Below, in pieces: positions 3,717 through 64,000 of a stretch of 64,000 nucleotides of DNA. Source of the stretch: an uncultured Bacilli bacterium (GTDB lineage Bacteria > Bacillota_I > Bacilli_A > RF39 > UBA660); NCBI GenBank assembly GCA_947626275.1, contig CANQRL010000009.1:7232-71231 (forward strand), read 5' to 3'. Under the pieces are notes generated by a model. The model saw only the letters and a program-made list of their open reading frames with translations. It did not search any database and was not told where the DNA came from. The stretch's first letter is position 1. Each line of letters opens with the position of its first letter. The position numbers and the translations under genes are program-made.

Positions 3717-3722
3717 GTGGAT

Positions 3723-7160: not shown

Positions 7161-7202
7161 TTTGCTATAATAAATGTGCGTTACAAAAAGGAGGGAAAGA
7201 GT

Positions 7203-7370: not shown

Positions 7371-7372
7371 TC

Positions 7373-7573
7373 ATGTTTAGACACTTCATTACAGCTATTA
7401 ATTATAAAAAATTAATTGAGATGCAAGCACACCAGCAATCTTTCGCTCCCCAAGCACTTAATGTAGGAGCAAGTATTAAAGCGGAAAACACAAAAGCTAA
7501 TAGACAAGCAATTACGAAATTAAACAGGATGAACAAAGCAAAAATTAAGGTCTATGGAAGAAGTGGAAAATAA
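7373..7573 (+). CDS. hypothetical small basic protein (66 aa)
   Basis: Strong RBS AGAGGAGAAA embedded in the rpmG 3' end. Only this frame is open. No TM segment, so not SecE. No known domain. Confidence 0.3.
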   Translation: MFRHFITAINYKKLIEMQAHQQSFAPQALNVGASIKAENTKANRQAITKLNRMNKAKIKVYGRSGK

Positions 7574-7611
7574 GGTAGTTGAGTCCTTATTTTTTGTAGA
7601 AAGGAGTATTT

Positions 7612-8169: not shown

Positions 8170-8267
8170 AAAGATAGAAATATCTTTTTTTTGTTAAAAA
8201 ATGGTGGGGAGAAATCTTGACGTAAAAAAAGAATAGTGATATTCTTGTTAATATAGGAGGAAAGTCA

Positions 8268-9338: not shown

Positions 9339-9421
9339 AGAAGAATGAATTCTTCTTTTTTTTCATTGTATAAATAAAAAAAATATAGTAAAATAATAAT
9401 AGTTGTATAGTGGGAGGAAAT

Positions 9422-10606: not shown

Positions 10607-10608
10607 AT

Positions 10609-11622: not shown

Positions 11623-12866
11623 GAATCGGTATTTTTACAGACACCTATCCTCCTTTTATTAACGGTGTTTCTACTAGTATTGCAATGTTGGAAAGTGCAC
11701 TGAAGAAAAAAGGACATCAAGTATTTATTGTAACGGTTAATCCGGATGATATGCATTATGTGTTTGAAAAGAATGATCACATTATTCGACTTCCTGGTAT
11801 TCCGGTTGGAATTTATGATTATCGTTTGACAGGAATTTATCCATTGAAGGCAATTAATAAGATTAAAGAGTGGAATTTGGACATTATTCATTCGCATACG
11901 GAGTTTGGGGTAGGTACTTTTGCGCGCATTATGGCAAAACAATTAGATATTCCGATTGTTCATACCTATCATACGATGTATGAAGACTACATTCACTATA
12001 TTACGAAAGGCTATTTTGATGCTCCTAGTAAAAAAATAGTAGAGCATTTAACGAAGTTCTACTGTGATAAGACGGTAACGGAATTGATTGTTCCAACTAA
12101 AAAGACGTATGATTTGTTTAAGGAAAAATATGAGTATACTAGAAACATTCATATCGTTCCTACGGGGATTGAAGTAGAACGGTTCTATCGAGAGAAGAAT
12201 AAAAAAGAGAAAACCACTATTTTAAAAGATCAGTTGGGAATTACCGATGATGATTTTGTTCTATTGTTTGTTGGCCGTTTAGCTTCAGAAAAAAATGTAA
12301 CATTTTTGATAGATAATCAAGTGGATTTAATTAAGAAAAATAAGCATTGTAAGTTATTGATTATTGGAGATGGACCAGATATTGACTTATTTAAAAGGCA
12401 AGCAAAAAAATTAAAGATAGCGGACAATGTCATTTTTACAGGAAAAATTCCATGGGAAGAAATTCATGAGTATTATCAAATTCCACAAGTCTTTGTAACG
12501 GCTTCTCATACGGAAACCCAAGGATTGACGTTATTGGAGGCAATGGCTGCATCCGTACCGGTAGTAGCTTTAGATGATGAAGCTTTCCGTGATGTTGTTA
12601 TCGATGATTTGAATGGTTATTTATTCACCAATAAGAAAGAGTATAAACAAGCGATTGAAAAAATTATGGATCATCCAGAGGTTATGGAACGGTTAAGCAG
12701 ACAGGCAAGAATTAATGCGGAATCTCATTCCGCCAAGTATTATGCTGAAAAAGTATTGGATGTATACTATACAGCATTAGGGGGAAAACCGGTTGGTAGA
12801 AAAGGAAAGAAAACATTTTTAACAACCATGAAGAGCGTAGTAAAGAAAGGATTACATGGCAAATAA
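11619..12866 (+). CDS. glycosyltransferase family 4 (probable glycolipid / glycosyl-diacylglycerol synthase)
   Basis: N-terminal IGIFTDTYPPFINGVS and the C-terminal EX7E-type GT4 fold (TETQGLTLLEAMA). ATGA overlap with the upstream gene. Confidence 0.8.
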   Translation: MRIGIFTDTYPPFINGVSTSIAMLESALKKKGHQVFIVTVNPDDMHYVFEKNDHIIRLPGIPVGIYDYRLTGIYPLKAINKIKEWNLDIIHSHTEFGVGTFARIMAKQLDIPIVHTYHTMYEDYIHYITKGYFDAPSKKIVEHLTKFYCDKTVTELIVPTKKTYDLFKEKYEYTRNIHIVPTGIEVERFYREKNKKEKTTILKDQLGITDDDFVLLFVGRLASEKNVTFLIDNQVDLIKKNKHCKLLIIGDGPDIDLFKRQAKKLKIADNVIFTGKIPWEEIHEYYQIPQVFVTASHTETQGLTLLEAMAASVPVVALDDEAFRDVVIDDLNGYLFTNKKEYKQAIEKIMDHPEVMERLSRQARINAESHSAKYYAEKVLDVYYTALGGKPVGRKGKKTFLTTMKSVVKKGLHGK

Positions 12867-13587
12867 AAAAATGGTAGTAGGTAACATGAAGATGAATTTA
12901 ACAGCAAAAGAGATTAATAAATACCTAAAAGAAGTAGAAAAAAAGAAATATAACAGTCAAGTCGTTTTTTGTCCTAGTGCACTTTATTTACCCTATTTTT
13001 TAGGACATGATTTTGCCGTTGGTATTCAAAATGTGGCGGCTTATGAAAATGGTGCCTATACAGGAGAAATCTCCGCTTCTCAAGCGAAGAGTATGAAAAT
13101 TTCTTATGCGATTATCGGACATAGTGAAAGACGAGGCTATTTCCAAGAAACGGATGAAGTCGTAGCGACGAAGTTGCGTTTAGCGTTGAAAGAAAATTTA
13201 AAGGTCATTTTATGTATTGGCGAAACGCTTGAGGAAAGGGATTCTCTTAGTACGTATAAAGTGTTGAAAAAACAGGTAAAGGCTGCTCTACAAGGAATCG
13301 ACAAGAATGACATTGCAAAAGTAACCATTGCTTATGAACCAATATGGGCAATTGGAACAGGAAGAGTTCCTTCCAATACAGAGATAGAGGATACCGTATC
13401 TTTCTTAAAGGATATGGTTCGAGAGTTATTACATGTCGAGATTCCTGTTCTCTATGGTGGAAGTGTCACCGATGAGAATATTCAAACTCTCAATAAAATA
13501 CCAAATGTAGATGGTTATCTTGTTGGTGGTGCGAGTACCAAGATAGAAAAATTTAATAAAATAATAGAAGTTGTTGTAACCCAATAA
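12856..13587 (+). CDS. tpiA: triosephosphate isomerase
   Basis: VVGNMKMN, AYEPIWAIGTG, GGSV motifs. 11-bp overlap with the GT4 gene. Confidence 0.9.
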   Translation: MANKKMVVGNMKMNLTAKEINKYLKEVEKKKYNSQVVFCPSALYLPYFLGHDFAVGIQNVAAYENGAYTGEISASQAKSMKISYAIIGHSERRGYFQETDEVVATKLRLALKENLKVILCIGETLEERDSLSTYKVLKKQVKAALQGIDKNDIAKVTIAYEPIWAIGTGRVPSNTEIEDTVSFLKDMVRELLHVEIPVLYGGSVTDENIQTLNKIPNVDGYLVGGASTKIEKFNKIIEVVVTQ

Positions 13588-13600
13588 CTTTTTTTATGCT

Positions 13601-13607
13601 TTCGACA
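13601..13607 (+). promoter_or_regulatory. TTCGACA (reverse of the Spo0A-box consensus TGTCGAA) upstream of spo0A
   Basis: Exact 7-mer located 62 nt upstream of the spo0A ATG, in the intergenic region. Confidence 0.35.
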
Positions 13608-13668
13608 TTTTTTGATAATTAGTTTAAAAAGGTAGTAGTAGAATAGGTAGTATCATAGGGAGGATAAT

Positions 13669-14433
13669 ATGAAAAAGATTAGATTATTAATGGTAGATGA
13701 CAATATAGAATTAATTGGTGCAGTAAAAGAATATTTGAAAGATAATAAAGATATGGAACTAGTATACGAAGCCTATAATGGAAAAGAGGGAATAGAGCTC
13801 ATTGAAAAGGAGAAAGATCACTACGACTTCATCATTTTAGATCTGATTATGCCTGTCAAAGACGGTATCTATGTTTTAGAAGAGATGAAGAAACGAGGAA
13901 TTGAGAAAAATGTCATTGTCGCAACGAGTTACAATGCGATGGAAGTTATTAGACAAGTTTCGGAATACGGGGTCAATTATTATGTTTTAAAACCGTTTGA
14001 CTTATCAGATTTAGAGCAAAAAATTCTGCAGGTTTCCAAACGTTCTTATGACAATACGAGTATCGATTTAAAGTATAATAACTTACAACTTTCTATTACC
14101 AAGATATTACATGAATTAGGGATTCCTTCACATATTAAAGGATATCAATATATTCGAGAAGGCATCGGTATTATCTATGAAAGACCAGAGACGATTGGCG
14201 GAATTACCAAAGAACTCTATCCGGAATTGGCAACGAAATTTGATACGACAGTATCGCGAGTAGAAAGAGCTATTCGGCATGCGATAGAGGTAAGCTGGAA
14301 TAGAGGAAACTGGGATTTGATGGAGGAGATATTTGGACATAGTGTCGATATCGATAAAGCAAAACCGACCAATTCTGAATTCATTGTCACGATAGCGGAC
14401 AAATTACGGTTAGATTATCATAAAGTGCATTAA
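13669..14433 (+). CDS. spo0A: sporulation master regulator Spo0A (receiver domain plus Spo0A_C DNA-binding domain)
   Basis: Receiver motifs (DDN, ILDLIMP, SYNAME) and the diagnostic C-terminal domain (ITKELYPELA...TVSRVERAIRHAIEVSWNRGN...KPTNSEFI). RBS AGGGAGG. Confidence 0.9.
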   Translation: MKKIRLLMVDDNIELIGAVKEYLKDNKDMELVYEAYNGKEGIELIEKEKDHYDFIILDLIMPVKDGIYVLEEMKKRGIEKNVIVATSYNAMEVIRQVSEYGVNYYVLKPFDLSDLEQKILQVSKRSYDNTSIDLKYNNLQLSITKILHELGIPSHIKGYQYIREGIGIIYERPETIGGITKELYPELATKFDTTVSRVERAIRHAIEVSWNRGNWDLMEEIFGHSVDIDKAKPTNSEFIVTIADKLRLDYHKVH

Positions 14434-14435
14434 AA

Positions 14436-14475
14436 AAATATATAGCTTTCAAACTATATATTTTTTTCTTTTGGG
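14436..14475. terminator. bidirectional terminator between spo0A and the convergent gene
   Basis: AAAAATATATAG...CTATATATTTTT palindrome flanked by A and T tracts. Confidence 0.6.
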
Positions 14476-15389
14476 GGAATGGAAAAACTAAGTGTTTCAT
14501 AGTCGAAGATTTCTAAGGAATCCCTTGGAATATCTCTTTTAATCATGTGATTCCTTGCATCTAAAATTCTTTTTAAATAGTATTCTGTGATAGATTCTCC
14601 TTCTGCTATCGAAACCGTTTCCTCTTCTATTCCTAGCTTTTCTTTTGTCGAGATGGCAACACATGGAAGGGTATCTGTTGCAAACTCTTTCCAATACTTT
14701 TCAAAGAAATGAAAAACAACTGCTTTTTCTTCTGGGGTAAGAGGTTTTGTCAATTCTTCCATGGATGCACAAGCACTTGGATAATCCCGATTGAGAAAGA
14801 CATTAAAATATTCTTTTTTATTTTCAATAAACTTTCGAAAGAAAGTAGGGGAAGATAATCCATAATAGGGAGAGGTTTCTAAATTGTTGGCAAAGAAAAT
14901 AGGGGTTGCCTCTCTCCCGTTGTAATAGCCAAAGATATTTTGCTTTCCGTATTTTTGAAAGATTCTTCTAACCTGTTCGATCTCTTCTAGATCCCATGGC
15001 TTTTCTTTGACGACTAATCCTCTATCTTGAATTTGTGGATAGAAGGTTCGATTGAAACTGTGAAAGACGAATCCACTTCTTAAAAACTCTTCTAAGCGAG
15101 TAAAATTGGAATCTCGCCTATATTCCTCTTCTAGAAAATGCTGTAAACAACTAGAGAAACATCTATAATTCTGATTTTTTTGAATGAACTCTCTATTTTC
15201 TAATATTTTATCCACTACAAAAGTAACATTTTCGAGAATGTGTAAATCACTATTTACAACAAAAGAGTAAAATAAAATGTCAATTAAGTTTACATATTCT
15301 TCTTTTGAAAGTTGATATTTTTTGGCTATCTCTACTAAGAGAAATTGTGTTTCTTCTGTCCACAATTCTTGGAACCATTTTTGTGCCAT
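14454..15389 (-). CDS. hypothetical cytoplasmic protein (311 aa)
   Basis: Long ORF. Preferred start ATG at 15389 with RBS GGTGA. The longer alternatives at 15434/15515 overlap the upstream gene. No recognised domain. Confidence 0.55.
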   Translation of the reverse strand: MAQKWFQELWTEETQFLLVEIAKKYQLSKEEYVNLIDILFYSFVVNSDLHILENVTFVVDKILENREFIQKNQNYRCFSSCLQHFLEEEYRRDSNFTRLEEFLRSGFVFHSFNRTFYPQIQDRGLVVKEKPWDLEEIEQVRRIFQKYGKQNIFGYYNGREATPIFFANNLETSPYYGLSSPTFFRKFIENKKEYFNVFLNRDYPSACASMEELTKPLTPEEKAVVFHFFEKYWKEFATDTLPCVAISTKEKLGIEEETVSIAEGESITEYYLKRILDARNHMIKRDIPRDSLEIFDYETLSFSIPPKEKNI

Positions 15390-15435
15390 ACAATCACCAA
15401 CTTCATTATAACAAAAATAGGATGGTTTATCCATC

Positions 15436-16308
15436 CTATTGATTGACAATTCGGTACAAGTTAAAAGACGGTCTATTGAAAAAACGAAATTTAATGTTAG
15501 AGGTTCCAATCCCACTAGAAATATAAAGATCAGTATTTTTTAAGTCGTAGTAGTTATCATAATATTTCTTAGCGTGAGGAGGAAGAATAAGCGCTCCCAC
15601 AAAAGGTAGTCTTACTTGTCCATTATGGGAATGTCCCGCTAAAATAAGTTGAAATTTAGAATAGTCAAAGTCTTCTATGTAATCTGGTTCATGCATAATT
15701 AAGATGTTGTATTGTGTTTGCATTTCCTCTATTTTTGCAAGGGCATCTTCTACTTTTTGTTCGAAATTTCCGTTGCCATATTGACCCGTAGAAGCTCCAG
15801 CAATTAAGATTGGCTCTTGTGCTCCATTATAGAGAATTTGATAGGAATCATCTAGATTCGTAAATCCGGTATTAGAGATAACCGTATGATATTCGGAACG
15901 AGTATTGTCGTGGTTCCCCATAATGATATATCGTCCTAAGGAAGCTTCCAATTTGGATAATTCTTTTTCTAGAAAATCCAAATCTTCTTTGGTGTACTGG
16001 ACATCTCTATCTAATAAATCTCCGGTAATAACGATAATATCAGGCTTTGTTTCATTAACTTGTTTTACAATCCTTTTTATCTCTTTTCTATTGGTCGTTT
16101 GACCATAATGAATATCGCTTAGATGGGCAATTTTTAGACCGTAGAAACTATTGGGTAATTGCTTATTAATGATAAGATATTCTTTCGTCTTTAACCCAGA
16201 AGTAGAAATAAAGCGACTATATAAAAGGGTACCTACCACGAAAAAAATGAGGAGGATGAACAATTTTAACCAAAGTCTAACTTTTCTTTTGGGAGTATTT
16301 TTTTCCAT
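15436..16308 (-). CDS. membrane-anchored metallophosphoesterase (calcineurin-like, YkuE-type)
   Basis: N-terminal TM helix, then HLSDIHYG, GDLLD, GNHD, GHSHNG phosphoesterase motifs. RBS GGTGA. Confidence 0.8.
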   Translation of the reverse strand: MEKNTPKRKVRLWLKLFILLIFFVVGTLLYSRFISTSGLKTKEYLIINKQLPNSFYGLKIAHLSDIHYGQTTNRKEIKRIVKQVNETKPDIIVITGDLLDRDVQYTKEDLDFLEKELSKLEASLGRYIIMGNHDNTRSEYHTVISNTGFTNLDDSYQILYNGAQEPILIAGASTGQYGNGNFEQKVEDALAKIEEMQTQYNILIMHEPDYIEDFDYSKFQLILAGHSHNGQVRLPFVGALILPPHAKKYYDNYYDLKNTDLYISSGIGTSNIKFRFFNRPSFNLYRIVNQ

Positions 16309-17153: not shown

Positions 17154-18173
17154 ATGAGAAAAAAATTAGACAATCGGGGATTTGCTATTTCAGCGATTCT
17201 CTATACGATGCTTATTTTAATTGTCTTGCTCATGTTTTTAATTATCAGTATCATATCTAATCGACGAGCTACGTTAAACAAGTTAACAGAAAATGTTCGT
17301 GACAAGATTGGGGGAGAGGTAGTTGGAAAACCGGCTGAACCAGTCCCTTTATATGATAAGATTAAGGTATCTGCCGTTGATGATTCCAGTATCAACTTTA
17401 AACAAGCCTCTTCCGATACCAATGGAAAGGGTACTTACGTAATGCATAGTACTACATCTACTACTCATCCTATCTATTATTATCGAGGAGATATTCACAA
17501 TAATTTTGTTCTTTTTGCTGGTTTTTGTTGGCAAATCGTAAGAACGACAGATACAGGTGGTATAAAACTTATTTATGTAAGTAGTGGAAATACCTGTCAA
17601 TACAATAAGAATAGTGTTATTAGTACGACGAAAACTAAGTATTCTGGTTCTCTTTCTACGTATCTTTATACGAGTTCAACGGTTAAAACAACGATAGAGA
17701 ATTGGTATAATAATAATATCAAAAATAAAACGGAAGCTAGTAAAGTAGAGTCTTCACAATGGTGTAATGATACTATTGCTTCTAGCACTGCTAGAACACC
17801 TAATGTAAATAGTTGTTCTAGAAAAGTAACTGCTACTATCGGTTTACCTACTTATGATGAAATGATTTTAGCAGGAGGAGTTTATGCTGAAAGTGGCGTT
17901 CAAAGAAACTACTGGCTTTATGTTCCACAGAATTATAAGGTAGGAAGTGGCTTTAGTAGTGGAACAGCACTCGATAATATTACGACAGTAGGAATGACCA
18001 TTGATACTGCTGGATCTAGAAGTACGGTTTACTATGTCGGTAGTAATGGACAGATTCACTCTTATACTGTAACAACGGCTTATAACATTCGTCCAATGAT
18101 TGTTTTAAAGCATGATGTTATATGGGCTAGTGGAACAGGAACTTCGACAGATCCTTATCAAATTCAACCATAA
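17154..18173 (+). CDS. Ser/Thr-rich surface protein with a pseudopilin-like (ComGG-like) N-terminus
   Basis: N-terminus MRKKLDNRGFAISAILYTMLILIVLL...NRR resembles the ComGG-type pseudopilin leader/anchor. The rest is S/T/N/Y-rich. The C-terminus ends with a GTGTSTDPYQI motif. Confidence 0.5.
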   Translation: MRKKLDNRGFAISAILYTMLILIVLLMFLIISIISNRRATLNKLTENVRDKIGGEVVGKPAEPVPLYDKIKVSAVDDSSINFKQASSDTNGKGTYVMHSTTSTTHPIYYYRGDIHNNFVLFAGFCWQIVRTTDTGGIKLIYVSSGNTCQYNKNSVISTTKTKYSGSLSTYLYTSSTVKTTIENWYNNNIKNKTEASKVESSQWCNDTIASSTARTPNVNSCSRKVTATIGLPTYDEMILAGGVYAESGVQRNYWLYVPQNYKVGSGFSSGTALDNITTVGMTIDTAGSRSTVYYVGSNGQIHSYTVTTAYNIRPMIVLKHDVIWASGTGTSTDPYQIQP

Positions 18174-18175
18174 GA

Positions 18176-18204
18176 TTGACAAATGATAAATATTTATTTA
18201 TAAT
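18176..18204 (+). promoter_or_regulatory. consensus sigma-A promoter (TTGACA-17-TATAAT) driving the T-box leader
   Basis: TTGACA at 18176-18181, a 17-nt spacer, and TATAAT at 18199-18204. Confidence 0.65.
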
Positions 18205-18210
18205 ACAAAA

Positions 18211-18440
18211 AGAAAAACGAGGAACAAGAGGAGTATTTGAAGAAAACTTTTAAGAGAGGAAGAGTCATCGGCTGAAAACTTTTCTAAAGAATATTCAAAG
18301 AAGGTAGCTTGGGAGTTGAATATCTGAATAGAGTAGGATATTTCGTTAGCAGCGTTAATGCTTTCAAGGTAATCGAAAGATTATGAATAAAGGTGGTACC
18401 ACGACTATTCGTCCTTTAGGGATGATGGTCGTGTTTTTTT
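18211..18440 (+). ncRNA. T-box riboswitch leader (probable Val specifier GUC)
   Basis: AGAGAGG...GAAGAGUCA region (codon GUC at 18264-18266 followed by A). Conserved T-box sequence AAAGGUGGUACCACG at 18388-18403. Terminator helix ACGAC.../...GGUCGU with a U7 tract at 18401-18440. Lies upstream of valS. Confidence 0.7.
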
Positions 18441-18459
18441 GTAAAGGGGGGATTCATCT

Positions 18460-18939
18460 ATGAAAGAAATTGAAACCGAAAAAGATAAATATTTGATATA
18501 TACACCATCGAAAGAATTGTTAATATTGGAAGCTACCTATGGTAGGAGAAGGGAAATCTTTGTTCCTTATTTGATGAGACGAGGAATGGATATTAATAAT
18601 TTTGAAAGATTAGAAACAGCCTTGTTAACGCTTTTAGATGATGAAAAAGCCATGTTTTTGATGCAGAGAAGAAACAAAAATATGCGATATGGACATTCTT
18701 ATGGAAAACTAGAGAAAACAGATTGGATACAAATTCGAAATTATTTAGGTTATTTGCAGGATTTTTCTCATCGTGAAGAGGAAATGTTGCAAGGTGCCAT
18801 TCAAAAAGAACATTTAAAAATGATGTATACTCCATTTGATGAAATACAAGAATATGCTAGCGATAGTGAAATTCGAATGGATTATGGTTTACTTCCAGCG
18901 CTTTCTATGCTAGAAGAAAAGGTATTTGTAAAAAAATAG
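18460..18939 (+). CDS. hypothetical protein (159 aa) between the T-box and valS
   Basis: RBS AAGGGGGG directly after the T-box terminator. No recognised domain. Confidence 0.55.
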   Translation: MKEIETEKDKYLIYTPSKELLILEATYGRRREIFVPYLMRRGMDINNFERLETALLTLLDDEKAMFLMQRRNKNMRYGHSYGKLEKTDWIQIRNYLGYLQDFSHREEEMLQGAIQKEHLKMMYTPFDEIQEYASDSEIRMDYGLLPALSMLEEKVFVKK

Positions 18940-18958
18940 AAAAGGAGAGTAGAGTAGT

Positions 18959-21487
18959 ATGTTAGAGACAAAATATAATCATAAGAAAGTAGAAGAAGGA
19001 AAATATGATACTTGGAAAAAGAAAGGATACTTTGAAAGTGGGGATTTATCTTTAAAACCCTATTGTATTGTTATCCCTCCTCCTAATGTTACAGGAAAGC
19101 TTCATTTAGGACATGCTTGGGATACGACTTTACAAGATATTATCATTCGTTATAAGAGGATGGATGGATATGATACCTTATGGCTTCCGGGAATGGATCA
19201 CGCGGCTATCGCAACGGAAGCAAAAGTTGTTCAAAAGTTAAAATCCCAAGGCATTGATAAGTATGAACTTGGAAGAGAAGGCTTTTTAAAAGCTTGTTGG
19301 GATTGGACGCATGAATACTCTGAAAATATCCGTAAACAATGGGCGAAATTAGGACTTAGCTTGGACTATCGTAAAGAAGCATTTACTTTAGATGAAAATC
19401 TAACAAGAGCGGTAAAGACGGTTTTTGTTAAACTCTATGAAGAGGGATTAATCTATCGGGGAGAAAGGATTATCAACTGGGATCCTGTTGCGAAGACTGC
19501 TTTATCCAATGAAGAAGTTATCTATAAGGAAGACGAAGGTGCTTTCTACCACTTAAAGTATTTTATAGAGGATAGTGAAGAGTATCTTGATGTTGCCACT
19601 ACTCGACCTGAGACCATGTTTGGTGATACAGCGGTAGCCGTTAATCCTAATGATGAAAGATATAAACACTTGATTGGCAAGAATGTTATTCTTCCAGTAG
19701 TTAATAAACGAATTCCGATTGTCGGAGATGAACATGCGGATCCAGAATTTGGAACTGGTGTAGTTAAGATTACGCCTGCCCATGATCCTAATGACTTTGA
19801 AGTGGGAAATCGTCATAATCTGGAACGGGTTGTCGTTATGAATGAAGATGCGACGATGAATGAAAATGCGTTAAAGTATCAAGGAATGACAAGAGAAGAA
19901 TGCCGTGAAGCCCTCGTAAAAGACTTAAAAGAACAAGGAATTTTAATTTCAATCGAACCAATGGTTCACAGCGTTGGGCATAGTGAGCGAACAGATGCCG
20001 TAGTAGAACCATATCTATCAAAACAATGGTTTGTTAAGATGAGCCCTTTAGCTGATAAAGTATTAGAAAATCAAAAGAAAAAAGCTAGTAAGGTAAATTT
20101 TGTCCCTCCTCATTATGAAAAGACAATGAATCACTGGATGGAGATTACCTATGACTGGTGTATTTCTCGTCAGTTATGGTGGGGACATCGTATTCCGGCT
20201 TGGTATAAGGGAGACGAAGTTTACGTTGGCATGGAACCCCCTAAAGGAAAAGGATGGGTACAGGATAACGACGTATTAGATACTTGGTTCAGTAGTGCAT
20301 TATGGCCTTTTGCGACGTTGGGATGGCCAGAGGAAAGCGCTGATTATCAAAGATACTATCCAAATAATTGTTTAGTAACCGGATATGATATTATTCCTTT
20401 TTGGGTTAATAGAATGACTTTCCAAGGATTAAAATTTACAGGCAAAAGACCATTTAAGGATTGCTTAATCCATGGACTGATTCGTGATAAAGAAGGAAGA
20501 AAAATGAGTAAGTCCTTAGGAAATGGTGTAGACCCTATGGATGTTATTGAGGAATATGGTTGTGATGCCTTAAGATTTTTCTTGACGACGAATTCTGCTC
20601 CTGGAGCCGATTTACGTTATGACGAAGAGAAGGCAAAATCCACTTGGAACTTTATCAATAAATTATGGAATGCTTCTCGCTTTGTTCTCATGAACTTAGA
20701 AGGATTTACGCAAAAGGAGTATACTTTGAAAAATTTATCTTTGGCAGATAAATGGATGTTAACGAAGTTAGAAAATACGATTGTTGAAGTTCGAAAAAAT
20801 ATGGAGACCTATGATTTTCACAATGTAGGAAATACTCTTTATAGTTTTATTTGGAATGATTTCTGCGACTGGTATATCGAGTTATCCAAAAAAGATATGT
20901 CCAATACGAATAAGAGTGTCCTACTGAAAGTGTTGACAGATATTGTGAAGATGCTTCATCCTTCTATGCCTTATGTAACAGAAGAAATCTATCAGATGTT
21001 ACCAATTCGCGATGCGGAGTCTATCATGATTAGCGCATATCCTAAGTTTGAAAAGAAGTATGTATTTGAAGAAGAAAAAGAAACGCTTGATAAGGTATTA
21101 GAGGATATAGTAGCGATTCGTAATATGAAAGCTACGAATAACATTACAAAACAGGCGAAAGTAACGTATGAAGTAGATCCTTCCCTAGAATCTATTTATG
21201 CTTCTCAATTAAAGATTACGGAAGAAAGTCTTCTAAAAGATAAGAAAGATTATTTGACTAGTACGTATAAATCAAAATATATTGATATTACTTACTATTA
21301 TGAAGGAACAAAGGAAGATAGTAGTAAGAAAGAAGAAGAAATTCAAAAATTAGAAGAGTCTATTCGTCGCCGGGAGACTTTATTGAGCAATGAAAACTAT
21401 GTTCAAAAGGCACCACAAAATATTGTGGAAATGGATAGAAAGAAATTACAAGAGGAAAAAGAGCGTTTAGCAATTTTAAAAAGTTAA
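18959..21487 (+). CDS. valS: valine--tRNA ligase
   Basis: HIGH motif ([15 protein letters not shown]), KMSKS, and class I editing/anticodon domains. Terminator at 21488-21517. Confidence 0.95.
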
Positions 21488-52281: not shown

Positions 52282-55104
52282 TTAATTCTCCGGAATAGTA
52301 GGTTCAGGAGTAGGGATGATAGAAGAACTGTTTACTGTTGCTTGAATACTTGAACCCTTACTCATGTTATTTTTGAATTTCGAGTAGCATGCCTTTACAA
52401 TTAATGTAACATCGCCATATTGTCCAGAAACAACATAGTTTGTATTTTCTGTCCAATCGAGTAAAGTTAATCCCTCACTGGTTTGAACATAGATATTGTA
52501 ACCTAAAGTACCTAGCGTACTTACGTTTTCTTTATAAACCTTATTGACATAAGAGTTTAAAGCACTATCTGTATTAAAGGCACTTTGATTTAACTTTTTA
52601 ATAACATCTTTATTTAACGCATCTGGAGTGGCAATTGGATTCCATGAAAGGGAAATCGAACCATCCAAATTAGAAGTAGCTTGTAGGTTAGATACGTCTG
52701 CTAGTTGGGCAAATCTAGTAGAAGTGGTAGCAGGTTCTGTACCCGCTACAAAGTATTCTTCTTTAATATATTTCTTTGGTGTATATTCGCTTGGAAGTTG
52801 TAGCGTAGCATATCCCGTTTCAATTTTTACTTTGGTTACCGTATCTGGCATCTTCCAATCGGTTTTATCCTTGAAAATTCCTTTTGCGACAGCTTGGAAT
52901 AATCTTGTATGTTGCATACTAGCTAGTAAGTTGTATCCATCTTTAATAGAAGGGTATCCATACCACATACCAATCGCATATTGAGTATTATAACCGCAAA
53001 CCCAATAGTGACCAACTGCTTTTGCTGGAAGTTTCCATTTCTTTTTCGTTTCTGCATCAAAGTTCGCTGTACCAGTTTTACCAGCATAAGGAACTCCATT
53101 AATATTTTTGTATTTTCCAGAGTCGATACCATAAGCAGCGGCATCTTGTAGCATATTGGTAATGAGATAAGCGGTAGAATCGTTCATGACTTGTTTTGTT
53201 TCCTTTGAATTTGTAATGACTTCTGAAGTATCTCCCATTACAATCTTAGTAACGGAATAAGGTTCGGTATAATAACCACCATTCGCAAAAGCGGAATAAG
53301 CAGCAGCCATGGAAAGAGGTGTTTCTCCTTCGTAACCACCAATAGCATGTGCTTCATGGAAGTTATTTTCTGGATGAAGTCCTAACTTTTGAACGAATGA
53401 TTTAATATCTCCCTTGCTTAATTTTTGGAATGTTTTTAAAGCTGGGATATTTCGTGATAATTTTAATTGTTCTCGAATGGTATCATATCCTCTAAAGGTA
53501 CCATCGGCATTGTTGATGGAAGTACCATCACTATAGGTTATTTTTTCATCGGCAATCGCCGTTGCTGGGGACCAGTTTTCAAATTCAATGGCAGGACCGT
53601 AGTCATAAAGTGGTTTAGCAGTAGAACCGATTTGTCTTAAGTAGTTTTCATCTGTTGCCCAGTTAATGTTTCCATCTACGGAAGTATCTCTATTTCCTCC
53701 AACGGCAACAAGTGCGCCTGTTTTTACATCGACAACGGCAATTCCTGCTTGAACTTTACTATTTTCCCATTTATAGCTTTTTCCGGTCATGATTTTTCCA
53801 ACGTGATATTGGAGGGTTTTATCAAAGGTTGTATAAATTTTCATGGAAGTTAATCGTGGATTTTGACCAGTTAGCTCTTTGACTTCTTCTACGACAGTAT
53901 CAACAGCAGAACGAATCTCTCCATCCATCGGATCAGCATTGGAAGTAATTCCGGTTCCCGTTACAATTTTATCAACCGTTAATTTCTTAGCAATTTCATA
54001 TTCTTTTTCAGTAATATAACCATGTCTTTTTAATAGTCCAAGGACCGTCATTCTTCTATTTTCAGCAGCTTCTGGGTGGAAAAATGGATCATATCCAGAA
54101 GGGGCTTGATACATTCCTGCTAAAAGTGCAGCCTCTGAGATATTGATATCTTTGGCACTTTTTCCAAAATACATTTGGGCAGCAGCTTCTAGTCCATAAG
54201 TAGAACCCATCTGGTTACTATTGATATAAAATTCAATGATTTCTTCTTTGGTATAAGTAGGCTCAATTTTGAACATCGCTACATAAATATCTTGAAATTT
54301 ACGAATAATTCCTTCAATTCCTTCGTCTTCTTTAGAAGTATAGGTGTTTTTCGAAAGCTGCATAGTAAGAGTAGAGGCACCTCCACCTTCTCTTCCTCGA
54401 GTTAATACTTGCGTAACCGAAGCAACTAAGAATCTTTGAAGGTCAAATCCATTATGTTGGAAGAATTTCGCATCTTCCGTAGCTACCAAGGCATTGATAT
54501 AAACTTCTGGAATTTCATCATAAGTAATGATATCTCTTTTTTCTAGTCCAACCGTTGCCATTAAGGAACCGTCTCGCCAGTAGAGAGTGGTAGGAGATAC
54601 GGAATATAATTTCTCTGGATTAAAGTCAGGAGAATTTTCAACGATATAAGAGCAAAAAGCAACGACTCCTACAACTCCTGCCATAAAACATAGGCAGCAG
54701 AAAATTAAGAAACATTGGAAAATTCGAAGAGCAATATGTCTTTTCTTCTTTTCCTTTTTTGGCTTTTCTTTTGTTTTCCCCTTTTTCTTCATTTCTTCTT
54801 CATCTCCTACTACGATTACTTCATCATCTTTTTTGTATTCATGGACGATTGCGACATCCTTTTTAGGAAGTTCTACTTTCTTTTCTTCTTTTTTCGCTTT
54901 TTCTTTTTCTTTCTTTAGATTATGGATAACCCGAGTCGCAATGGTTTTAATTTCTACACGGAAGAAGATGACATCTAAGATAAGGACTAGAAGAAAAGTT
55001 GGCAAGAACCCAATTGCTAAGGTTCCTACAATAAGCACTAATACACTCATGATGATAACAACTAAGGATGTTGGATTTTTAAGCTTTCTCATTTTTGGTT
55101 TCAT
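52282..55104 (-). CDS. ponA: class A penicillin-binding protein 1A (glycosyltransferase plus transpeptidase) with C-terminal FN3-like extension
   Basis: GT51 motifs (EDAKFFQHNGFD, RGGSTLTMQL). TP motifs (STAKP, SRN, KTGT). RBS AGAGGTGA. The N-terminal region is unusual (see findings). Confidence 0.9.
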   Translation of the reverse strand: MKPKMRKLKNPTSLVVIIMSVLVLIVGTLAIGFLPTFLLVLILDVIFFRVEIKTIATRVIHNLKKEKEKAKKEEKKVELPKKDVAIVHEYKKDDEVIVVGDEEEMKKKGKTKEKPKKEKKKRHIALRIFQCFLIFCCLCFMAGVVGVVAFCSYIVENSPDFNPEKLYSVSPTTLYWRDGSLMATVGLEKRDIITYDEIPEVYINALVATEDAKFFQHNGFDLQRFLVASVTQVLTRGREGGGASTLTMQLSKNTYTSKEDEGIEGIIRKFQDIYVAMFKIEPTYTKEEIIEFYINSNQMGSTYGLEAAAQMYFGKSAKDINISEAALLAGMYQAPSGYDPFFHPEAAENRRMTVLGLLKRHGYITEKEYEIAKKLTVDKIVTGTGITSNADPMDGEIRSAVDTVVEEVKELTGQNPRLTSMKIYTTFDKTLQYHVGKIMTGKSYKWENSKVQAGIAVVDVKTGALVAVGGNRDTSVDGNINWATDENYLRQIGSTAKPLYDYGPAIEFENWSPATAIADEKITYSDGTSINNADGTFRGYDTIREQLKLSRNIPALKTFQKLSKGDIKSFVQKLGLHPENNFHEAHAIGGYEGETPLSMAAAYSAFANGGYYTEPYSVTKIVMGDTSEVITNSKETKQVMNDSTAYLITNMLQDAAAYGIDSGKYKNINGVPYAGKTGTANFDAETKKKWKLPAKAVGHYWVCGYNTQYAIGMWYGYPSIKDGYNLLASMQHTRLFQAVAKGIFKDKTDWKMPDTVTKVKIETGYATLQLPSEYTPKKYIKEEYFVAGTEPATTSTRFAQLADVSNLQATSNLDGSISLSWNPIATPDALNKDVIKKLNQSAFNTDSALNSYVNKVYKENVSTLGTLGYNIYVQTSEGLTLLDWTENTNYVVSGQYGDVTLIVKACYSKFKNNMSKGSSIQATVNSSSIIPTPEPTIPEN

Positions 55105-55657
55105 TTTTCACCTCTATCAATTTTAAATAATCTAAGCGTGGGCGTAACCCAATCGGAATGAGTTTCCCATATTTTTGAAAATAACTTCTCGGAATCGATT
55201 TTCTTTTTTCACTATCGAGAAAGTGAAAAAAGGCATCTCCACTTAAAAAGTAAGTCTCTCCATAAGCGGTAAAACGTACGATAAGAAAACCAATTCCTCC
55301 ATGTTTTTGAATTCTTCGTAAGTGAGCAATCTGGTGTTCGTGGATATTCGATAGGGGAAAACTTGTCTTGTAAGAAGTCTCTTTGGCTTCAAAGTCAATA
55401 TATTTTCCCTGATAGATTCCATTATAATCCGTAGTAGATGGAATCGTAAATCTAGCATCGGTAATGACAGCATCTTTTCTCGAATGATAATCGACTTTAT
55501 GAATCGTAATCGGCGTTGGCTTTTTATAAATGATAGCGATATCACTATCCCGATAATACTCATTCGTGACATTCAAATCTTCTTCTAGGTTCATTCCTCT
55601 ATTTCCATAAGAGGGAAGCACTTTATAGACTTTTTGAATGCCATTTGGATATTTCAC
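55079..55657 (-). CDS. recU: Holliday-junction resolvase RecU
   Basis: KYPNG, RGMNLEEDLN, DYNGIYQGKYIDFEAKET, FPL.NIH.HQ motifs. GTG start at 55657 preceded by AGGTGAGG. Overlaps the ponA start by 26 bp, as in B. subtilis recU-ponA. Confidence 0.85.
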   Translation of the reverse strand: MKYPNGIQKVYKVLPSYGNRGMNLEEDLNVTNEYYRDSDIAIIYKKPTPITIHKVDYHSRKDAVITDARFTIPSTTDYNGIYQGKYIDFEAKETSYKTSFPLSNIHEHQIAHLRRIQKHGGIGFLIVRFTAYGETYFLSGDAFFHFLDSEKRKSIPRSYFQKYGKLIPIGLRPRLDYLKLIEVKNETKNEKA

Positions 55658-55767
55658 GTTCCTCACCTAGGAGTATTATACTATAAAATAAAAATTATTT
55701 CCACTCCTCACTAGTATTCGACAAATGTTCCGCATTCTTTATTCTATAGTGATATGGAGGTGAGAAA

Positions 55768-55881
55768 ATGGAACGAAAAAAGCATGTAGAAGAAATGTTT
55801 AATACCATGATTAACGACATTAGCTATATCAAATTAAATACTTATCAAATCGGTCAAAAGAAGGAGCAGGGGAATGTTTGA
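55768..55881 (+). CDS. small ORF (37 aa) with a strong RBS and its own terminator
   Basis: GGAGGTGAG 6 nt before the ATG. Followed by an AATGTTTG-A-CAAACATT hairpin and T8 tract at 55872-55900. Not in the ORF track because it is under 60 aa. Confidence 0.3.
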   Translation: MERKKHVEEMFNTMINDISYIKLNTYQIGQKKEQGNV

Positions 55882-55934
55882 CAAACATTCTTTTTTTTGA
55901 GATAATATGAGAGAAATAAAGAGAGGTGGATAGA

Positions 55935-56264
55935 ATGTATCAAGATAGAGTTGTGCTTACTAGTAAGGATATTCTAGAGAAAGATTTTAAAATTGATACA
56001 AGAGGTTATCGACCACAAGAAGTAGATCGTTTTCTCGATATGATTATTAAAGATTATGATGAAATGACAACGATTATCCGAGAATTAGAAGAAGATAAAA
56101 AAGAATTATTAGAAGATAATATTCGGTTAAAGAAGGAAGTTAGAAATCTTCGTACCAAATTAGATGTTATCTCAGAGAATGATTCTACTGGCGCTAGCGG
56201 AGCGAATGCCGATTTACTTCGAAGATTATCAAATCTAGAAAAAATAATATATGGAAAAGAATAA
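55935..56264 (+). CDS. gpsB: cell-cycle protein GpsB (DivIVA-domain)
   Basis: LTSKDILEKDFKIDTRGYRPQEVDRFLDMIIKDYD is a DivIVA/GpsB N-domain. ATG at 55935 follows AGAGAGGTGG; the track start at 55926 is GTG. Confidence 0.85.
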   Translation: MYQDRVVLTSKDILEKDFKIDTRGYRPQEVDRFLDMIIKDYDEMTTIIRELEEDKKELLEDNIRLKKEVRNLRTKLDVISENDSTGASGANADLLRRLSNLEKIIYGKE

Positions 56265-57829: not shown

Positions 57830-58360
57830 ATGAAACTAGTTCCTTTTCTTTTTAGAACCCTTTTGACGATTATCATTAGTTTATGTGTTTTGATTATGAT
57901 AAAAATGAGCCCACGTTTTAAAGAACTTGTCTATCAAAAAGTCTATACCGAAAGTTTTCCTTTTTTAGAAGTAGGAACCTTGTATCAGAATCTGTTTGGG
58001 TCAACTTTTCCGTTTGATAAATATATCAAAACCAAACCCGCCTTTCAGGAAACATTAACTTATCAGAAGAAAGAACCCTATTTAGAAGGAGTACGTCTAA
58101 TGGTTGAAGATACGTATCCTGTCCCTGTTTTAAAAACCGGTTTGGTTATTTTTGTAGGAGAAAAAGAAGGGTATGGAAAAGTAGTGATTGTCGAACAATT
58201 AGATGGTATCCATTGTTGGTATGGTAATCTTTCTACTAGTACGGTAAAACTGTATGACTATGTAGAAGAAGGAAATCTTCTTGGGGTAGCAGAAAAAGAA
58301 CTATATTTGGTTTATAAAGAAGAGGGAGTATCGATTCCATATGAAGAATATCCTCTTTAA
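57830..58360 (+). CDS. SpoIVFA-like membrane protein with a degenerate M23/LytM domain
   Basis: N-terminal TM helix. C-terminal LytM-like fold (KTGLVIFVGEKEGYGKVVIVEQLDGIHCWYGNL) lacking the catalytic His residues. Immediately upstream of, and overlapping, the site-2 protease gene. Confidence 0.55.
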   Translation: MKLVPFLFRTLLTIIISLCVLIMIKMSPRFKELVYQKVYTESFPFLEVGTLYQNLFGSTFPFDKYIKTKPAFQETLTYQKKEPYLEGVRLMVEDTYPVPVLKTGLVIFVGEKEGYGKVVIVEQLDGIHCWYGNLSTSTVKLYDYVEEGNLLGVAEKELYLVYKEEGVSIPYEEYPL

Positions 58361-59066
58361 AGTTCGCTTTCATCCTCTTTTTTACCTTCTTTTAGTTCTT
58401 TCTATTTTAACGGCGCAGTTTCAAAAGGTAGTCGAATTTATGACTATCATTTTTGTTCATGAATTGGGTCATGTCTCAGTAGCTACTTTCTTCAGATGGA
58501 AAATCAAAAGAATTTTAATTTTACCGTTTGGGGGTATGGTAGAGTTTCAAGAGAAACTGAATCGTCCTATGTACCAAGAGTTTTTGATTACGCTAGGAGG
58601 TCCCTTATTTCAAATCCTCCTTTCCTTTTTTTGGAAAAGCTCTTATCATTTTCCCTTGCTCTTTTTTAATCTTCTTCCTATCTATCCCTTAGATGGATCA
58701 AAGTTTCTTTTTTTGCTTCTCAATTTTTTTACTAGCTATTATTGTAGTTATCTGATACTCTTTCTTTGTTCTTCCTTTACCATTTTTTTCCTTCTTTTGA
58801 AAGACCCTAATTTTTTCACCTTGCTTTTCTTTTCGTATCTACTTTATCAAAGCATTCATCTGTTAGGGTCTGTCCCTGAACTCTTTTTAAGGTTTTTATT
58901 TGAGCGATATCAAGAAGACTTTTTTTTCTACCGAAAGAAGAAAATTATAGGGCCTAAGTTTAAGAAAATGAAGAGAGATGTGAGACACTTTTTTGTGATA
59001 GAGAAAAAAACATATGAAGAGAGGGATGTTTTGGGGACTTTTCTCTTTCAAACATTGAAAAAGTAA
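58341..59066 (+). CDS. spoIVFB: site-2 (M50) intramembrane metalloprotease, SpoIVFB-like
   Basis: HELGH zinc site and NLLPIYPLDGSK (LDG) motif in a polytopic membrane protein. The N-terminus aligns to B. subtilis SpoIVFB (KIHVHPFLW vs KVRFHPLFY). The C-terminus is shorter than the Bacillus CBS domain. Confidence 0.8.
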   Translation: MKNILFKVRFHPLFYLLLVLSILTAQFQKVVEFMTIIFVHELGHVSVATFFRWKIKRILILPFGGMVEFQEKLNRPMYQEFLITLGGPLFQILLSFFWKSSYHFPLLFFNLLPIYPLDGSKFLFLLLNFFTSYYCSYLILFLCSSFTIFFLLLKDPNFFTLLFFSYLLYQSIHLLGSVPELFLRFLFERYQEDFFFYRKKKIIGPKFKKMKRDVRHFFVIEKKTYEERDVLGTFLFQTLKK

Positions 59067-59074
59067 GAAGGATA

Positions 59075-59083
59075 TGGTATAAT
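59075..59083 (+). promoter_or_regulatory. extended -10 (TGGTATAAT) upstream of the giant surface-protein gene
   Basis: TGGTATAAT lies 56 nt upstream of the ATG at 59139. Confidence 0.45.
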
Positions 59084-59138
59084 CGAACTTAAGTTGACGG
59101 GCAAATACTAGAGGATAAAATATTGTGGCGGTGAAGGA

Positions 59139-62100
59139 ATGAAGAAAAAAGAAAAAAATAATATAAAGAGGAGACAATGGACGATAAGAATTGCCGTAAT
59201 TGTAGGCATTCTTCTATTGCTCCTCCTTTTGTGTTTTTGTGGGCGAAAAGATTACGGTGTTTCTTTTCAAATTGGCGATAATGTCTATACCATGGTCAAT
59301 ATTCGTCATGGTGGGAAAGTGGAAGAACCAAAAGTTCCAACCAAAGAGGGTTATACTTTCCAAGGATGGTATTGGAATGATAAAAAATTCGACTTTAACT
59401 CTGAGATTACGAAAGATGTTATTTTAGAGGCTCGGTTTGAAGAAAATATTTATACGGTTACCGTGGATGACGGAAATGGAAATCAAATAGAATTACATGC
59501 AAAACATAAAGAGGCTATTTCAGAACCAAAAGTAGGAGAAAAAAGGGGATACTACTTTGCTGGATGGTACGTTGATGGGGAAGAATTCCATTTTGAAGAT
59601 GGTGTCACAAAAGATACTCAGGTAGAGGGAAAATGGGCTCTTAATGAGCATGCACTTTATCGGGTAGAACACTATTTACAAGAAAAAGATGGAACGTACC
59701 CTAAAACTTATAAAGATATCGAAATTTTAGACGGGAAAACCAATAGTACGGTTACTCCTGCTACGCACACGTATCGCGGATATCAAACACCAAGTAAGAA
59801 AAGCGTGAAAGTAGAATCTGACGGTACAACAATCGTAAAATACTATTATTCTCTTAAAATTTATACATTGGTAGTAGTAGGTGGAGCAGGAATTGATTCT
59901 GTAAGTGGAAGTGGAAAATACTACTACGGAGATGAAGTAAAGATTGGTTATACCTTAAAAGATGGCTATCACTTCAGTGGCTATAGTAGATCTTTAGATG
60001 GCGATATTTTTGCGATGCCAGATGAAAATGTTGGAATAGAGGTAATGGCAGAGGCTAATGCAGATACTCCTTACCGGGTAGAACATTATTTACAAAATAT
60101 AGATGAGAGCTATCCAGAAACTCCAGAAGAAATAGAGACGCTAAAGGGGAAAACTGACTCTCAAGTAAAACCTGATACCCATATTTATGAAGGCTTTACC
60201 GCTCCTCAAAAACGAGAGGTAGTAATTGATGGTAAGGGAACAACTGTTATAAAGTATTACTATACTAGAAATAAATACCACATTACTATTACAGGGGATA
60301 GAGGAATTGCCTCTCTTACTCAATCAGGTGACTTCTACTATGGTGATGAGATAAAAATAGAAGCGACTTTAAAAAGTGGATATGCTTTAAAAGAGTGGTC
60401 TACCAAAGAACAAACGCTTACTATTTCTTATCAGGTAAAAGATAACGATACAGTAACAGTCACAACGACTCCAATCAAATATACGATTACCTATGAATTA
60501 GAGGGAGGGGAAGGTGAAACTTCTTCTCAATATACGGTAGAAGACAAGGTTCAATTACCAACTCCGAAAAGGGGAGGATACACATTCCGTGGCTGGTATT
60601 TAGATCAAGACTATCAAAAAGGACCAGTGACAGAATTAGAAAATTCTGTTGGAAATCTTACCCTTTATGCAAAATGGGAAGCAAACCCTCATACAAAATA
60701 TTTAGTTAAACATTACTACATGAATGTTGCAGGAAATTATGACGGTGTTAAACCAGTGGAAGAAGAACAAGAAGGAAGAACAGGAGCAACTACTTCGATT
60801 ACCGACCGAAAAGTAAAAGAAGGATTTACTTTTGATTCCTCTAAATCAGATACTGAAAAAGAGATTTCTGGGGAAGAGGAAACGATTGTTTCTTACTACT
60901 ATGTTCGAGAAAAATATGATGTAAAAGTTCAAGCTTCTACAGGAATAGAAAAAGTAACAGGATCAGGAAGTTACTACTTTGAACAAGAAGTAGAAGTAAC
61001 AGCTGCTTTAAAGATGGGATATGAAAATCTTACTTGGGAAGGATCTGTTCAAGAAGTAGATGGCAAAACAATTCTTACTGTTCCAGTAGGTGGAATAACG
61101 GTTACCGCCAAAGCAACTCCAAAAGAGAATACTCCTTATACTGTAAAGCATCATTTTATGAATAAAGAAGGCGACGGATATTTAGAGCCAATCGTTGATT
61201 ATCAAATAGGAACGACTGACGAAACCATCAGAGTTTCTCCTCGCGAAGTAGACGGATTTAACGTTCCTGAAGAGCAATCTTTAACGATTACTGGTGATGG
61301 ACTGGCTTCTTTAGATTTTTATTATGAAAGAAATCAATATACCGTTACTATTACGACAGAAGAAGGCGTAACTAGTAAGATTTCTAGTATTACGGACTAC
61401 TTTGACAAGGAAATAGAAATTACTTTCGATAATCTATCTTTTAATCCAGGATATCGCTTTGTTTCTTGGGTAATTGACGGTGTGGAAACAACGGAAGAAG
61501 ATATCACATTATCTATTCCATCTCATCACGTCAATATTCTAGTCAAAGCAGAAAAGATACCTTATCAAGTAACTTTTAAAAACGATAATCCCCATCGAAA
61601 AAATAGTAAGCCTGTTACTTACTATTATGGAGATTCTATTACGGAACCTGAATTTGTAGATTGGGAACATCACGATTTCCAAGGTTGGTATTTAGAAAAT
61701 GTAGATGGCTCATTAGCGAGCGAGGCATGGAATTTTAAAGAAGATACTATGCCAGCTAGAAATATTACGTTGGTAGCGAAATGGAAAATCCATAAGGGAA
61801 CACTTAATTTCAATTTTGGATTTAAAGGTGTTTATCAACCATTTAAAAATGTCAACTATGATACGACGGTAGAAGAATTGCTTACAAGAGAAGGAAAATC
61901 TCTTGAAGACTATACTTCTCCAACTCATCAAGGATACAAATTCTTAGGATGGTATCCATCTAGAGATTTTGAAAAGGCAAAACCAATTGAGGATATTTTA
62001 CATTACACTATGCCAGACCCAGAAGAGATGGGAATGGAAGAACAAGGAATTACGCTATATGCGAATTGGAAACCTTACCGCTATCAAGTAGAATTTAATG

Positions 62101-64000: not shown

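Follow-up and report, generated by a model that had tools for sequence, protein, structure and literature searches.

At the end of a 64,000-nt stretch of contig CANQRL010000009.1 from an uncultured Bacilli bacterium, called the window here, lies the 5′ part of a giant gene that encodes a repeat-built surface protein. On the forward strand from the ATG at 59139 to position 64000, translation gives 1620 codons with zero stops, while the remaining five frames have 58–165 stops each across the same interval. The closest upstream in-frame stop is at 59109, and this ATG is the first start codon after it. A first-pass annotation, made by a model from the letters of the window, had claimed a frame of at least 1620 codons open to the window end, and the re-translation agrees. 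The gene has a G+C content of 35.1%, and the window as a whole 34.8%.

Outside the window the gene runs on for 1073 codons, and the window holds its first 60%. A public unnamed protein of 2693 aa (P0001, in NCBI and ENA) is 100% identical across all 1620 window residues, and the identical full-length protein is called in 3–4 independent assemblies. The contig that carries P0001 (L001) shows 2 differences from the window in 14,862 nt. At the DNA level, repeats within the gene are at most 84% identical over 141 nt, so the repeat array is old rather than recently amplified, and misassembly or collapse is unlikely.

It is extremely unlikely that the frame is non-functional, as a chance open frame, a chimera of repeat assembly or a decaying pseudogene. 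Misassembly is common in repeat-rich genes, and an IS3 element lies 56 nt past the stop. However, a run of 2693 stop-free codons, the agreement of the independent assemblies, the moderate identity of the DNA repeats and the good scores of all the domains speak for a working gene. Thus, the gene is real and intact, and is cut by the window edge.

The list of open reading frames (ORFs) for the gene region contains a single out-of-frame ORF of 62 aa at 59239–59427, as had already been pointed out. The giant gene is missing from the list because ORFs running off the source are omitted. Its unlisted status is, then, an artefact of the listing rule and not a property of the gene.

The predicted main promoter of the gene, found by a promoter scan at 59055–59083, overlaps the 3′ end of the preceding M50 peptidase gene. 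It contains the −10 element TGGTATAAT at 59075 that the first-pass annotation had named, and the ribosome-binding site which the annotation had placed before the ATG is plausible as well (Table 1).

The protein is built mostly from profile-recognizable repeats. In the window part, Pfam finds 12 stretches of Flg_new (PF09479; E = 3.9e-99, 325 bits vs a cut-off of 27) and 4 stretches of Flg_new_2 (PF18998; E = 1.6e-39), and NCBIfam finds 11 stretches of TIGR02543 (215 bits vs a cut-off of 21). Over the full protein, the Flg_new stretches number 17. Such repeated matches above curated cut-offs identify an InlB B-repeat, or Listeria-Bacteroides repeat, protein, and the Flg_new repeats that had first been read off the letters are strongly matched by the profile.

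In total, the stalk has some 35 β-rich domains. Besides the composite modules, they include about 21 units of the Flg_new type and 4 YxVxHY domains. The YxVxHY modules had been described as about 150 aa long. They are present, but there are 4 of them, each is about 135–145 aa, and each consists of two domains. The claim that two module types alternate along the protein did not survive, as the YxVxHY modules are confined to residues 174–807 and a third, composite type begins at residue 1464. Each composite module spans about 140 aa and closes with ~40 residues that match the C-terminal half of Flg_new.

Table 1. Features of the giant gene, its expression signals, its upstream neighbours and the related loci. 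Positions are those of the window unless a contig is named.
Feature	Residues	Position	Strand	Basis or remark
M23 peptidase-domain gene		57830–58360	+	Pfam; 176 aa
M50 peptidase gene		58341–59066	+	Pfam; 241 aa; 20-nt overlap with M23 gene
Promoter, predicted sigma-70/sigma-A-type		59055–59083	+	Promoter scan; TTGAAA, 17-nt spacer, TG-extended TATAAT; 11/12 consensus matches
Weaker second promoter-like site		59094–59121	+	TTGACG, 16 nt, TAAAAT; 10/12 matches; between main promoter and start codon
Ribosome-binding site, plausible		59127–59134	+	GGCGGTGA, read from sequence; ends 4 nt ahead of ATG
Giant gene, 5′ part (codons 1–1620)	1–1620	59139–64000	+	8082-nt gene (2693 aa + stop); window cuts at codon 1620
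N-terminal segment	1–34	59139–59240	+	Basic n-region, 19-residue hydrophobic stretch, L-C-F-C34
Two Flg_new repeats	39–100, 105–170	59253–59648	+	Pfam
Module 1, YxVxHY + Flg_new_2	174–238 + 242–307	59658–60059	+	Pfam, alignment; AlphaFold model
Module 2, YxVxHY + Flg_new_2	312–376 + 380–446	60072–60476	+	Pfam, alignment
Flg_new repeat	448–515	60480–60683	+	Top Pfam match of the protein; between modules 2 and 3
Module 3, YxVxHY + Flg_new_2	521–589 + 593–662	60699–61124	+	Alignment
Module 4, YxVxHY + Flg_new_2-like	667–730 + 734–807	61137–61559	+	Alignment
Eight-repeat Flg_new array	809–1462	61563–63524	+	Repeat analysis; 55–95 aa apiece
Composite module 1 of 5	1464–1605	63528–63953	+	~140 aa; final ~40 residues are Flg_new C-terminal half
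Composite module 2, start	1607–1746 (full module)	63957–64000	+	Cut by window end
Composite modules 3, 4 and 5	1748–1886, 1888–2020, 2168–2314			Outside window
Two Flg_new repeats	2022–2166			Between composite modules 4 and 5; outside window
C-terminal region	2315–2693			No Pfam match
Paralogue locus		L011 (ERZ27249462 NODE_358): 3332–16198
Paralogue locus		L019 (NODE_28): 10001–13735
Paralogue locus		L022: 210–3584
L002 orthologue A		L002: 9980–15856	+	Giant gene
L002 ORF C		L002: 15984–17159	−	391 codons; second C-terminal domain copy, converging on A

A CxxC motif, DRCDDC, stands in two successive Flg_new repeats at residues 1209/1212 (62763–62774) and 1291/1294 (63009–63020), and is kept in P0002, P0121 and P0123. 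The protein, otherwise Cys-poor (0.7% Cys), has additional Cys pairs at 2032/2035, 2136/2141 and 2349/2360. These pairs could be disulfide or metal sites.

Each YxVxHY module joins a 65-aa YxVxHY unit to a Flg_new_2 domain of about 70 aa. The 65-aa unit is covered by no Pfam family, and a profile made from 28 copies of the module has no match among the PDB sequences at E ≤ 1. An AlphaFold model of residues 171–307, built on the module alignment, is all-β with a mean pLDDT (predicted local distance difference test) of 97.6. In a Foldseek search of this model against the PDB, the best structural match is Lactococcus lactis YwfG (7yl4 and 7yl6) with a TMq of 0.6. Further matches are Bacillus anthracis TIE, the SHIRT repeats, Limosilactobacillus reuteri MUB type 2 (3i57), a MucBP domain (3q69) and InlB with its B-repeat (7pv9). 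What the model matches in these Gram-positive surface proteins are their stalk parts. The fold of the InlB B-repeat is β-grasp-like.

A small β-rich repeat fold is, therefore, seen for the model of YxVxHY plus Flg_new_2. The likeness to MucBP is structural only, with no Pfam match to its profile (PF06458) at E ≤ 0.1, and the protein does not belong to that family. As modelled, the YxVxHY module is a small β-domain pair of the MucBP/Mub/B-repeat structural class and a stalk-like element.

The N-terminus was called signal-anchored by the first-pass annotation. An N-terminal signal is indeed there, but a plain signal anchor is less likely than a lipoprotein signal in view of the alignment around Cys34. 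In this alignment of 15 relatives, Cys34 is near-invariant, and a canonical lipobox (LTSC, LSSC, LVSC or ISAC) stands at its position in 9 of the 14 listed homologues (P0004, P0006, P0008–P0011, P0013, P0035 and P0042). We took a lipoprotein signal to need positive charge in the n-region, hydrophobicity in the h-region and a lipobox of [LVI][ASTVI][GAS]C. The first two are present here, whereas the studied protein and its nearest relatives depart from the lipobox rule by a Phe at −1 (CFC, SFC, TFC or VFC). Hence, residues 1–34 probably form a lipoprotein signal peptide whose −1 residue is non-canonical. If not, they would be an uncleaved signal anchor, and the tether would be N-terminal in both cases.

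No wall anchor accompanies this tether. A regular-expression search of the full 2693 aa gives no LPXTG-like motif, and the C-terminus (...LTYSLTVEKK) has no hydrophobic tail. Pfam finds no SLH, CWB/CWB2, LysM or GW domain in the full protein. The protein is, thus, not a sortase-, SLH- or CWB-anchored wall protein. It had been assigned to the adhesins or cell-wall-associated proteins of low-GC Firmicutes; the adhesin or surface class is supported, but the wall association is not.

The opposite end is a rare domain of about 380 aa (residues 2315–2693). An exhaustive HMMER search found it in 7 proteins at E ≤ 0.001 among 1.84 billion representatives, and superseded a word-indexed search with the C-terminal 393 aa that had missed even P0001 itself. 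With a local profile, strongly diverged versions of the domain are also found at the C-terminal ends of P0004, P0010, P0009, P0011, P0019 and P0013. The alignment shows SSLY and AG[IF]KTAFW as conserved motifs. Its alignment found no relative among the JGI metagenome contigs. The AlphaFold model is weak, with a pLDDT of 56, and mixed α/β.

We propose, with a probability of about 0.72, that an uncultured spore-forming Bacilli bacterium of the gut makes from this gene an extracellular fibre of 2693 aa, which is tethered at its N-terminus and bears a binding tip at its C-terminus. The core of the earlier reading, a giant secreted repeat adhesin or surface protein of a low-GC Firmicute, holds in this proposal, and the identical full-length protein exists. 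Flg_new is classed as a stalk domain of fibrillar adhesins (PMC9210967), and proteins with Listeria-Bacteroides repeats are regarded as adhesion factors of gut-associated microbes (PMC7883539). Of the features of a fibrillar adhesin, tandem domains of a recognised stalk family (PMC9210967) are present here and a known adhesive domain distal to the anchor is not.

In this proposal, the gene would be transcribed from its own housekeeping-type promoter, as the consensus match suggests. After export by Sec, the N-terminus would keep the product on the outer side of the cytoplasmic membrane. According to the alignment, the tether would most likely be a lipid-modified Cys34, or else an uncleaved hydrophobic segment. 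The ~35 small β domains, identified as Flg_new, Flg_new_2, YxVxHY and composite, would give a long stalk. By the known MucBP/Mub/InlB-type stalk repeats, this may be a beads-on-a-string fibre on the order of 100 nm. The stalk would carry the ~380-aa α/β C-terminal domain beyond the wall as a ligand-binding tip.

Several points weigh against this proposal. The promoter and the ribosome-binding site are consensus matches only, and the Phe at −1 of the L-C-F-C lipobox violates the usual [GAS] rule. The C-terminal 380 aa have no Pfam family, including no known adhesive domain, and their profile has no match among the PDB sequences at E ≤ 1. The low-confidence model of this domain (pLDDT 56) gave no significant fold match. 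The adhesive role of the tip would, then, follow from its position alone. The other readings are less supported than the fibrillar adhesin.

One of them replaces the adhesive tip by a carbohydrate-binding or enzymatic one that captures substrate, like the large Flg_new enzymes of gut Firmicutes. Other listed Flg_new proteins bear glycoside-hydrolase, pectate-lyase or dockerin domains, the best structural match, YwfG, is a surface protein that binds mannose, and an α/β fold is predicted for the C-terminal domain. However, Pfam finds no catalytic or carbohydrate-binding module family at E ≤ 0.1, and the neighbouring genes include none for sugar utilisation. We consider this tip quite unlikely.

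The proposed fibrillar adhesin can be set beside several known systems. 'InlB B-repeat-containing' is what NCBI calls the large Flg_new repeat proteins of gut Firmicutes, for example of Dorea and Muricomes. With these, the giant protein shares the repeat families, the size class of 1,200–2,800 aa and the habitat type, but the named relatives are just 24–27% identical to it. Relatives of more than 40% identity come only from a few assemblies of uncultured Bacilli, a small group to which the C-terminal domain is confined. An open-access literature search returned no paper using the phrase 'InlB B-repeat'.

The Listeria internalins InlA, InlB and InlH have the B-repeat (Flg_new) in common with the giant protein, and the NCBIfam internalin models match there only. 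The leucine-rich repeats, the inter-repeat domain, the LPXTG motif and the GW anchor of the internalins are all absent here. The scores stay far below the cut-offs, with 131 bits vs 1600 for internalin_A and 108 vs 1050 for internalin_H, and thus the giant protein is neither a class 1 internalin nor an internalin of any kind.

The Mub/MucBP adhesins such as L. reuteri MUB and L. lactis YwfG have a stalk of tandem small β-domain pairs, as here. The 137-aa module superposes on the repeat region of YwfG with the TMq given above, and it also matches MUB type 2 and MucBP. In contrast, those adhesins have a C-terminal LPXTG, whereas the giant protein has an N-terminal lipid or transmembrane tether and a different tip domain. 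Classical Gram-positive fibrillar adhesins likewise combine a C-terminal LPXTG anchor with an N-terminal adhesive tip, and this topology is reversed here. Altogether, the gene joins a well-known kind, the giant InlB B-repeat-containing surface proteins, as a new and divergent member. What sets it apart is the reverse topology, the YxVxHY domain without Pfam or PDB sequence match and the rare C-terminal domain.

Directly upstream of the giant gene are the M23 and M50 peptidase genes, which the first-pass annotation called a spoIVFA/spoIVFB-like pair. Their adjacency is right, but their identity comes from Pfam domains and gene order and is not backed by any NCBIfam equivalog. Both genes are short for SpoIVFA/SpoIVFB, and in NCBIfam their proteins reach no threshold of the SpoIVFA or SpoIVFB equivalogs. 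The other upstream neighbours are spoIVA, a class A penicillin-binding protein (PBP) gene, recU and gpsB (above the NCBIfam cut-off), a rodZ-like gene and pgsA, followed by M23 and M50. At 52282–56264, recU and the class A PBP gene overlap on the same strand with gpsB nearby and spoIVA upstream, in the Bacillus-type order. This agrees with the 'Bacilli' label of the closest metagenome-assembled genome, and spoIVA suggests that the organism forms spores.

The closest genome match is L002 (CANROB010000001.1), a metagenome-assembled genome of an uncultured Bacilli bacterium from a rabbit ('Lapin') sample. Its order is M23-M50-giant gene(s)-rplU-prp-rpmA, and the rplU-prp-rpmA context is found likewise in L017 and L022. 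This matches the order in Bacillus subtilis, spoIVFA-spoIVFB-rplU-ysxB-rpmA. Hence, the label 'spoIVFA/spoIVFB-like' is reasonable for the pair.

With such neighbours, the giant protein might act in sporulation or on the spore surface and be regulated together with the adjoining pair, and it does lie directly 3′ of the M23/M50 genes in a region that also has spoIVA. However, it has its own predicted promoter of the vegetative type, and related giant genes elsewhere adjoin uvrC, aspS, rpsB or tgt. Moreover, the signal peptide and lipobox indicate export from a vegetative or mother cell. We regard a spore role as very unlikely.

The flanking proteins are 74–97% identical between the window and L002 (SpoIVA 97%, GpsB 96% and PBP1 91%), the least conserved among those compared being M23 and M50 at 74–77%. 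The giant protein is only 52% identical, and the L002 version is ~730 residues shorter with several composite modules missing. The giant-gene locus is hypervariable. Such divergence, far faster than that of the neighbours, would be expected of an exposed surface protein under diversifying pressure.

The giant gene is not alone in its genome. No second Flg_new gene was found inside the window, but the same genome or species has at least 4 further giant Flg_new paralogues of 2174, 2065, 1244 and 1124 aa. The 2065-aa paralogue, P0002, adjoins the 2174-aa gene, P0019 is the one of 1244 aa, and the paralogue B of 1124 aa is P0127. The N-termini of the giant paralogues are alike and their C-terminal ends are different, while their housekeeping neighbours are trmD/rpsB, aspS and rplU. 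P0019 was considered as a continuation of the window locus and rejected, being a separate paralogue after aspS.

In more distant relatives (L013: 7079–9922 and 15059–21265; L014: 6927–9937; L018: 4082–7258), a conserved gene pair precedes each giant gene. The pair consists of a 305–444-aa protein with Flg_new and Big_2 and a protein of about 600–630 aa (1755 aa once) without Pfam match. It is absent at the window locus.

The several giant paralogues in one genome also bear on an S-layer-like envelope coat, in which giant lipoprotein paralogues form a protective layer and the C-terminal domain self-associates. This would agree with the lack of a recognisable adhesive domain. Clostridioides difficile SlpA fragments are among the fold matches of the C-terminal model, but at E > 0.1 they are not evidence. 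On the other side, Pfam found no SLH, CWB2 or other S-layer anchoring domain, and both the long beads-on-a-string series of repeats and the structural matches correspond to the stalks of fibrillar adhesins. A coat is, in our judgement, unlikely.

In two sister genomes, the giant gene is accompanied by an inverted C-terminal cassette. In L002, ORF C starts within the last Flg_new repeat; it lacks both an N-terminal part and its own promoter. The possibility that this minus-strand ORF is a transposase splitting the gene was rejected, since its translation is a second copy of the C-terminal domain. In L002, C is followed by paralogue B (1125 aa), an independent gene that has a separate promoter and signal sequence. 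A and C are linked by an inverted repeat of 66 nt with 85% identity, whose arms are at 14758–14823 and 17173–17238. Its core, a 28-nt exact match CCGATAATGAGCATTATGTAGAGTACCA, lies exactly at the edge of the cassette homology.

The same locus in L017 (GCA_947628235.1, CANQZC010000024.1; 7212–11019) has a silent cassette, P0122. The type of C-terminal module that is expressed in L002 is inverted and silent beside B in L017, and the homology breakpoint is at the same repeat. Here the inverted repeat is 522 nt with 95% identity (arms at 7212–7733 and 10498–11019) and links residues ~1807–1980 of the expressed 2203-aa gene to the cassette head. From the repeat edge onward, the cassette frame stays open until its stop. 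In L017, inversion would also turn round a helix-turn-helix gene (339 aa) and a 108-aa ORF, which lie between the repeats.

Both genomes, thus, have a promoterless inverted cassette bounded by inverted repeats. The identity of the repeat is high compared with less than 35% amino-acid identity in the rest of the domain, which argues for ongoing recombination. As read from these genomes, the arrangement suggests the layout that a C-terminal tip exchanged by DNA inversion would be expected to have. Instead of a dedicated recombinase, general homologous recombination could act on the 522-nt repeat.

Inversion drives variation in the vsa lipoproteins of Mycoplasma pulmonis, the R64 shufflon (PilV C-termini), Campylobacter fetus sap and type I hsdS. 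As in L002 and L017, these systems place an expressed gene beside a promoterless inverted cassette, which has inverted repeats at its bounds and codes for another version of the protein end. The differences are that the exchanged part here would be the C-terminal tip of a stalk protein of more than 2000 aa and that no tyrosine or serine recombinase is found within ~10 kb in L002 or L017. The missing recombinase speaks against a programmed switch, as does the sole other copy of the L002 cassette (in L012), which has the same silent arrangement.

The window strain differs downstream of its gene. After 56 nt past the stop comes the insertion sequence of the IS3 family noted above (L001, ~18139–19405; rve and HTH_21 domains), and the contig ends at its terminus. 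The element has imperfect terminal repeats, TGAAA...AGTAGACATT(G/A)ATAAAAAAGACTT, and no target-site duplication. Its flanks, AAAAAGATCAAGG and CTTTGATCTTTTT, are complementary, like a terminator hairpin split in two. At this element the assembly breaks off between the giant gene and paralogue B.

The contigs L022 and L023, which carry B-rplU-prp-rpmA of this species, start with the same 52 nt of the IS3 end. Their homology to L002 upstream of B ends at ...AAAGAAATTTCGATAAT, exactly where the L002 cassette would begin. A tblastn search for a silent cassette found none in the window and L001, and no invertible arrangement is seen in this strain.

Apparently, then, the window strain has no cassette, and the simplest reading of its locus is P0001, IS3 and B in this order. 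With short-read contigs, two IS copies that bracket extra DNA are a less simple alternative. A further idea is that the gene belongs to a variable adhesin whose tip is exchanged by inversion between long repeats, with the window strain as a locked variant that lost its cassette at IS3. We hold this as tentative and rather doubtful. The inversion cassettes are the most interesting lead, although they lie outside the window and seem to be lacking in the window strain.

For annotation, a 2,693-residue surface protein like this one would be missed by any ORF list that drops edge-crossing genes. The 65-aa YxVxHY domain, matched by no Pfam or PDB sequence profile, could be defined as a family. The gene adds a fibrillar surface protein of reverse topology, resolved in good detail, from uncultured spore-forming gut Bacilli. 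With at least 5 of them in one genome, the lineage seems to invest heavily in giant surface proteins. If the tip exchange by inversion is true, the sister genomes would offer a compact system, made by nature, in which a very long adhesin changes what it binds.

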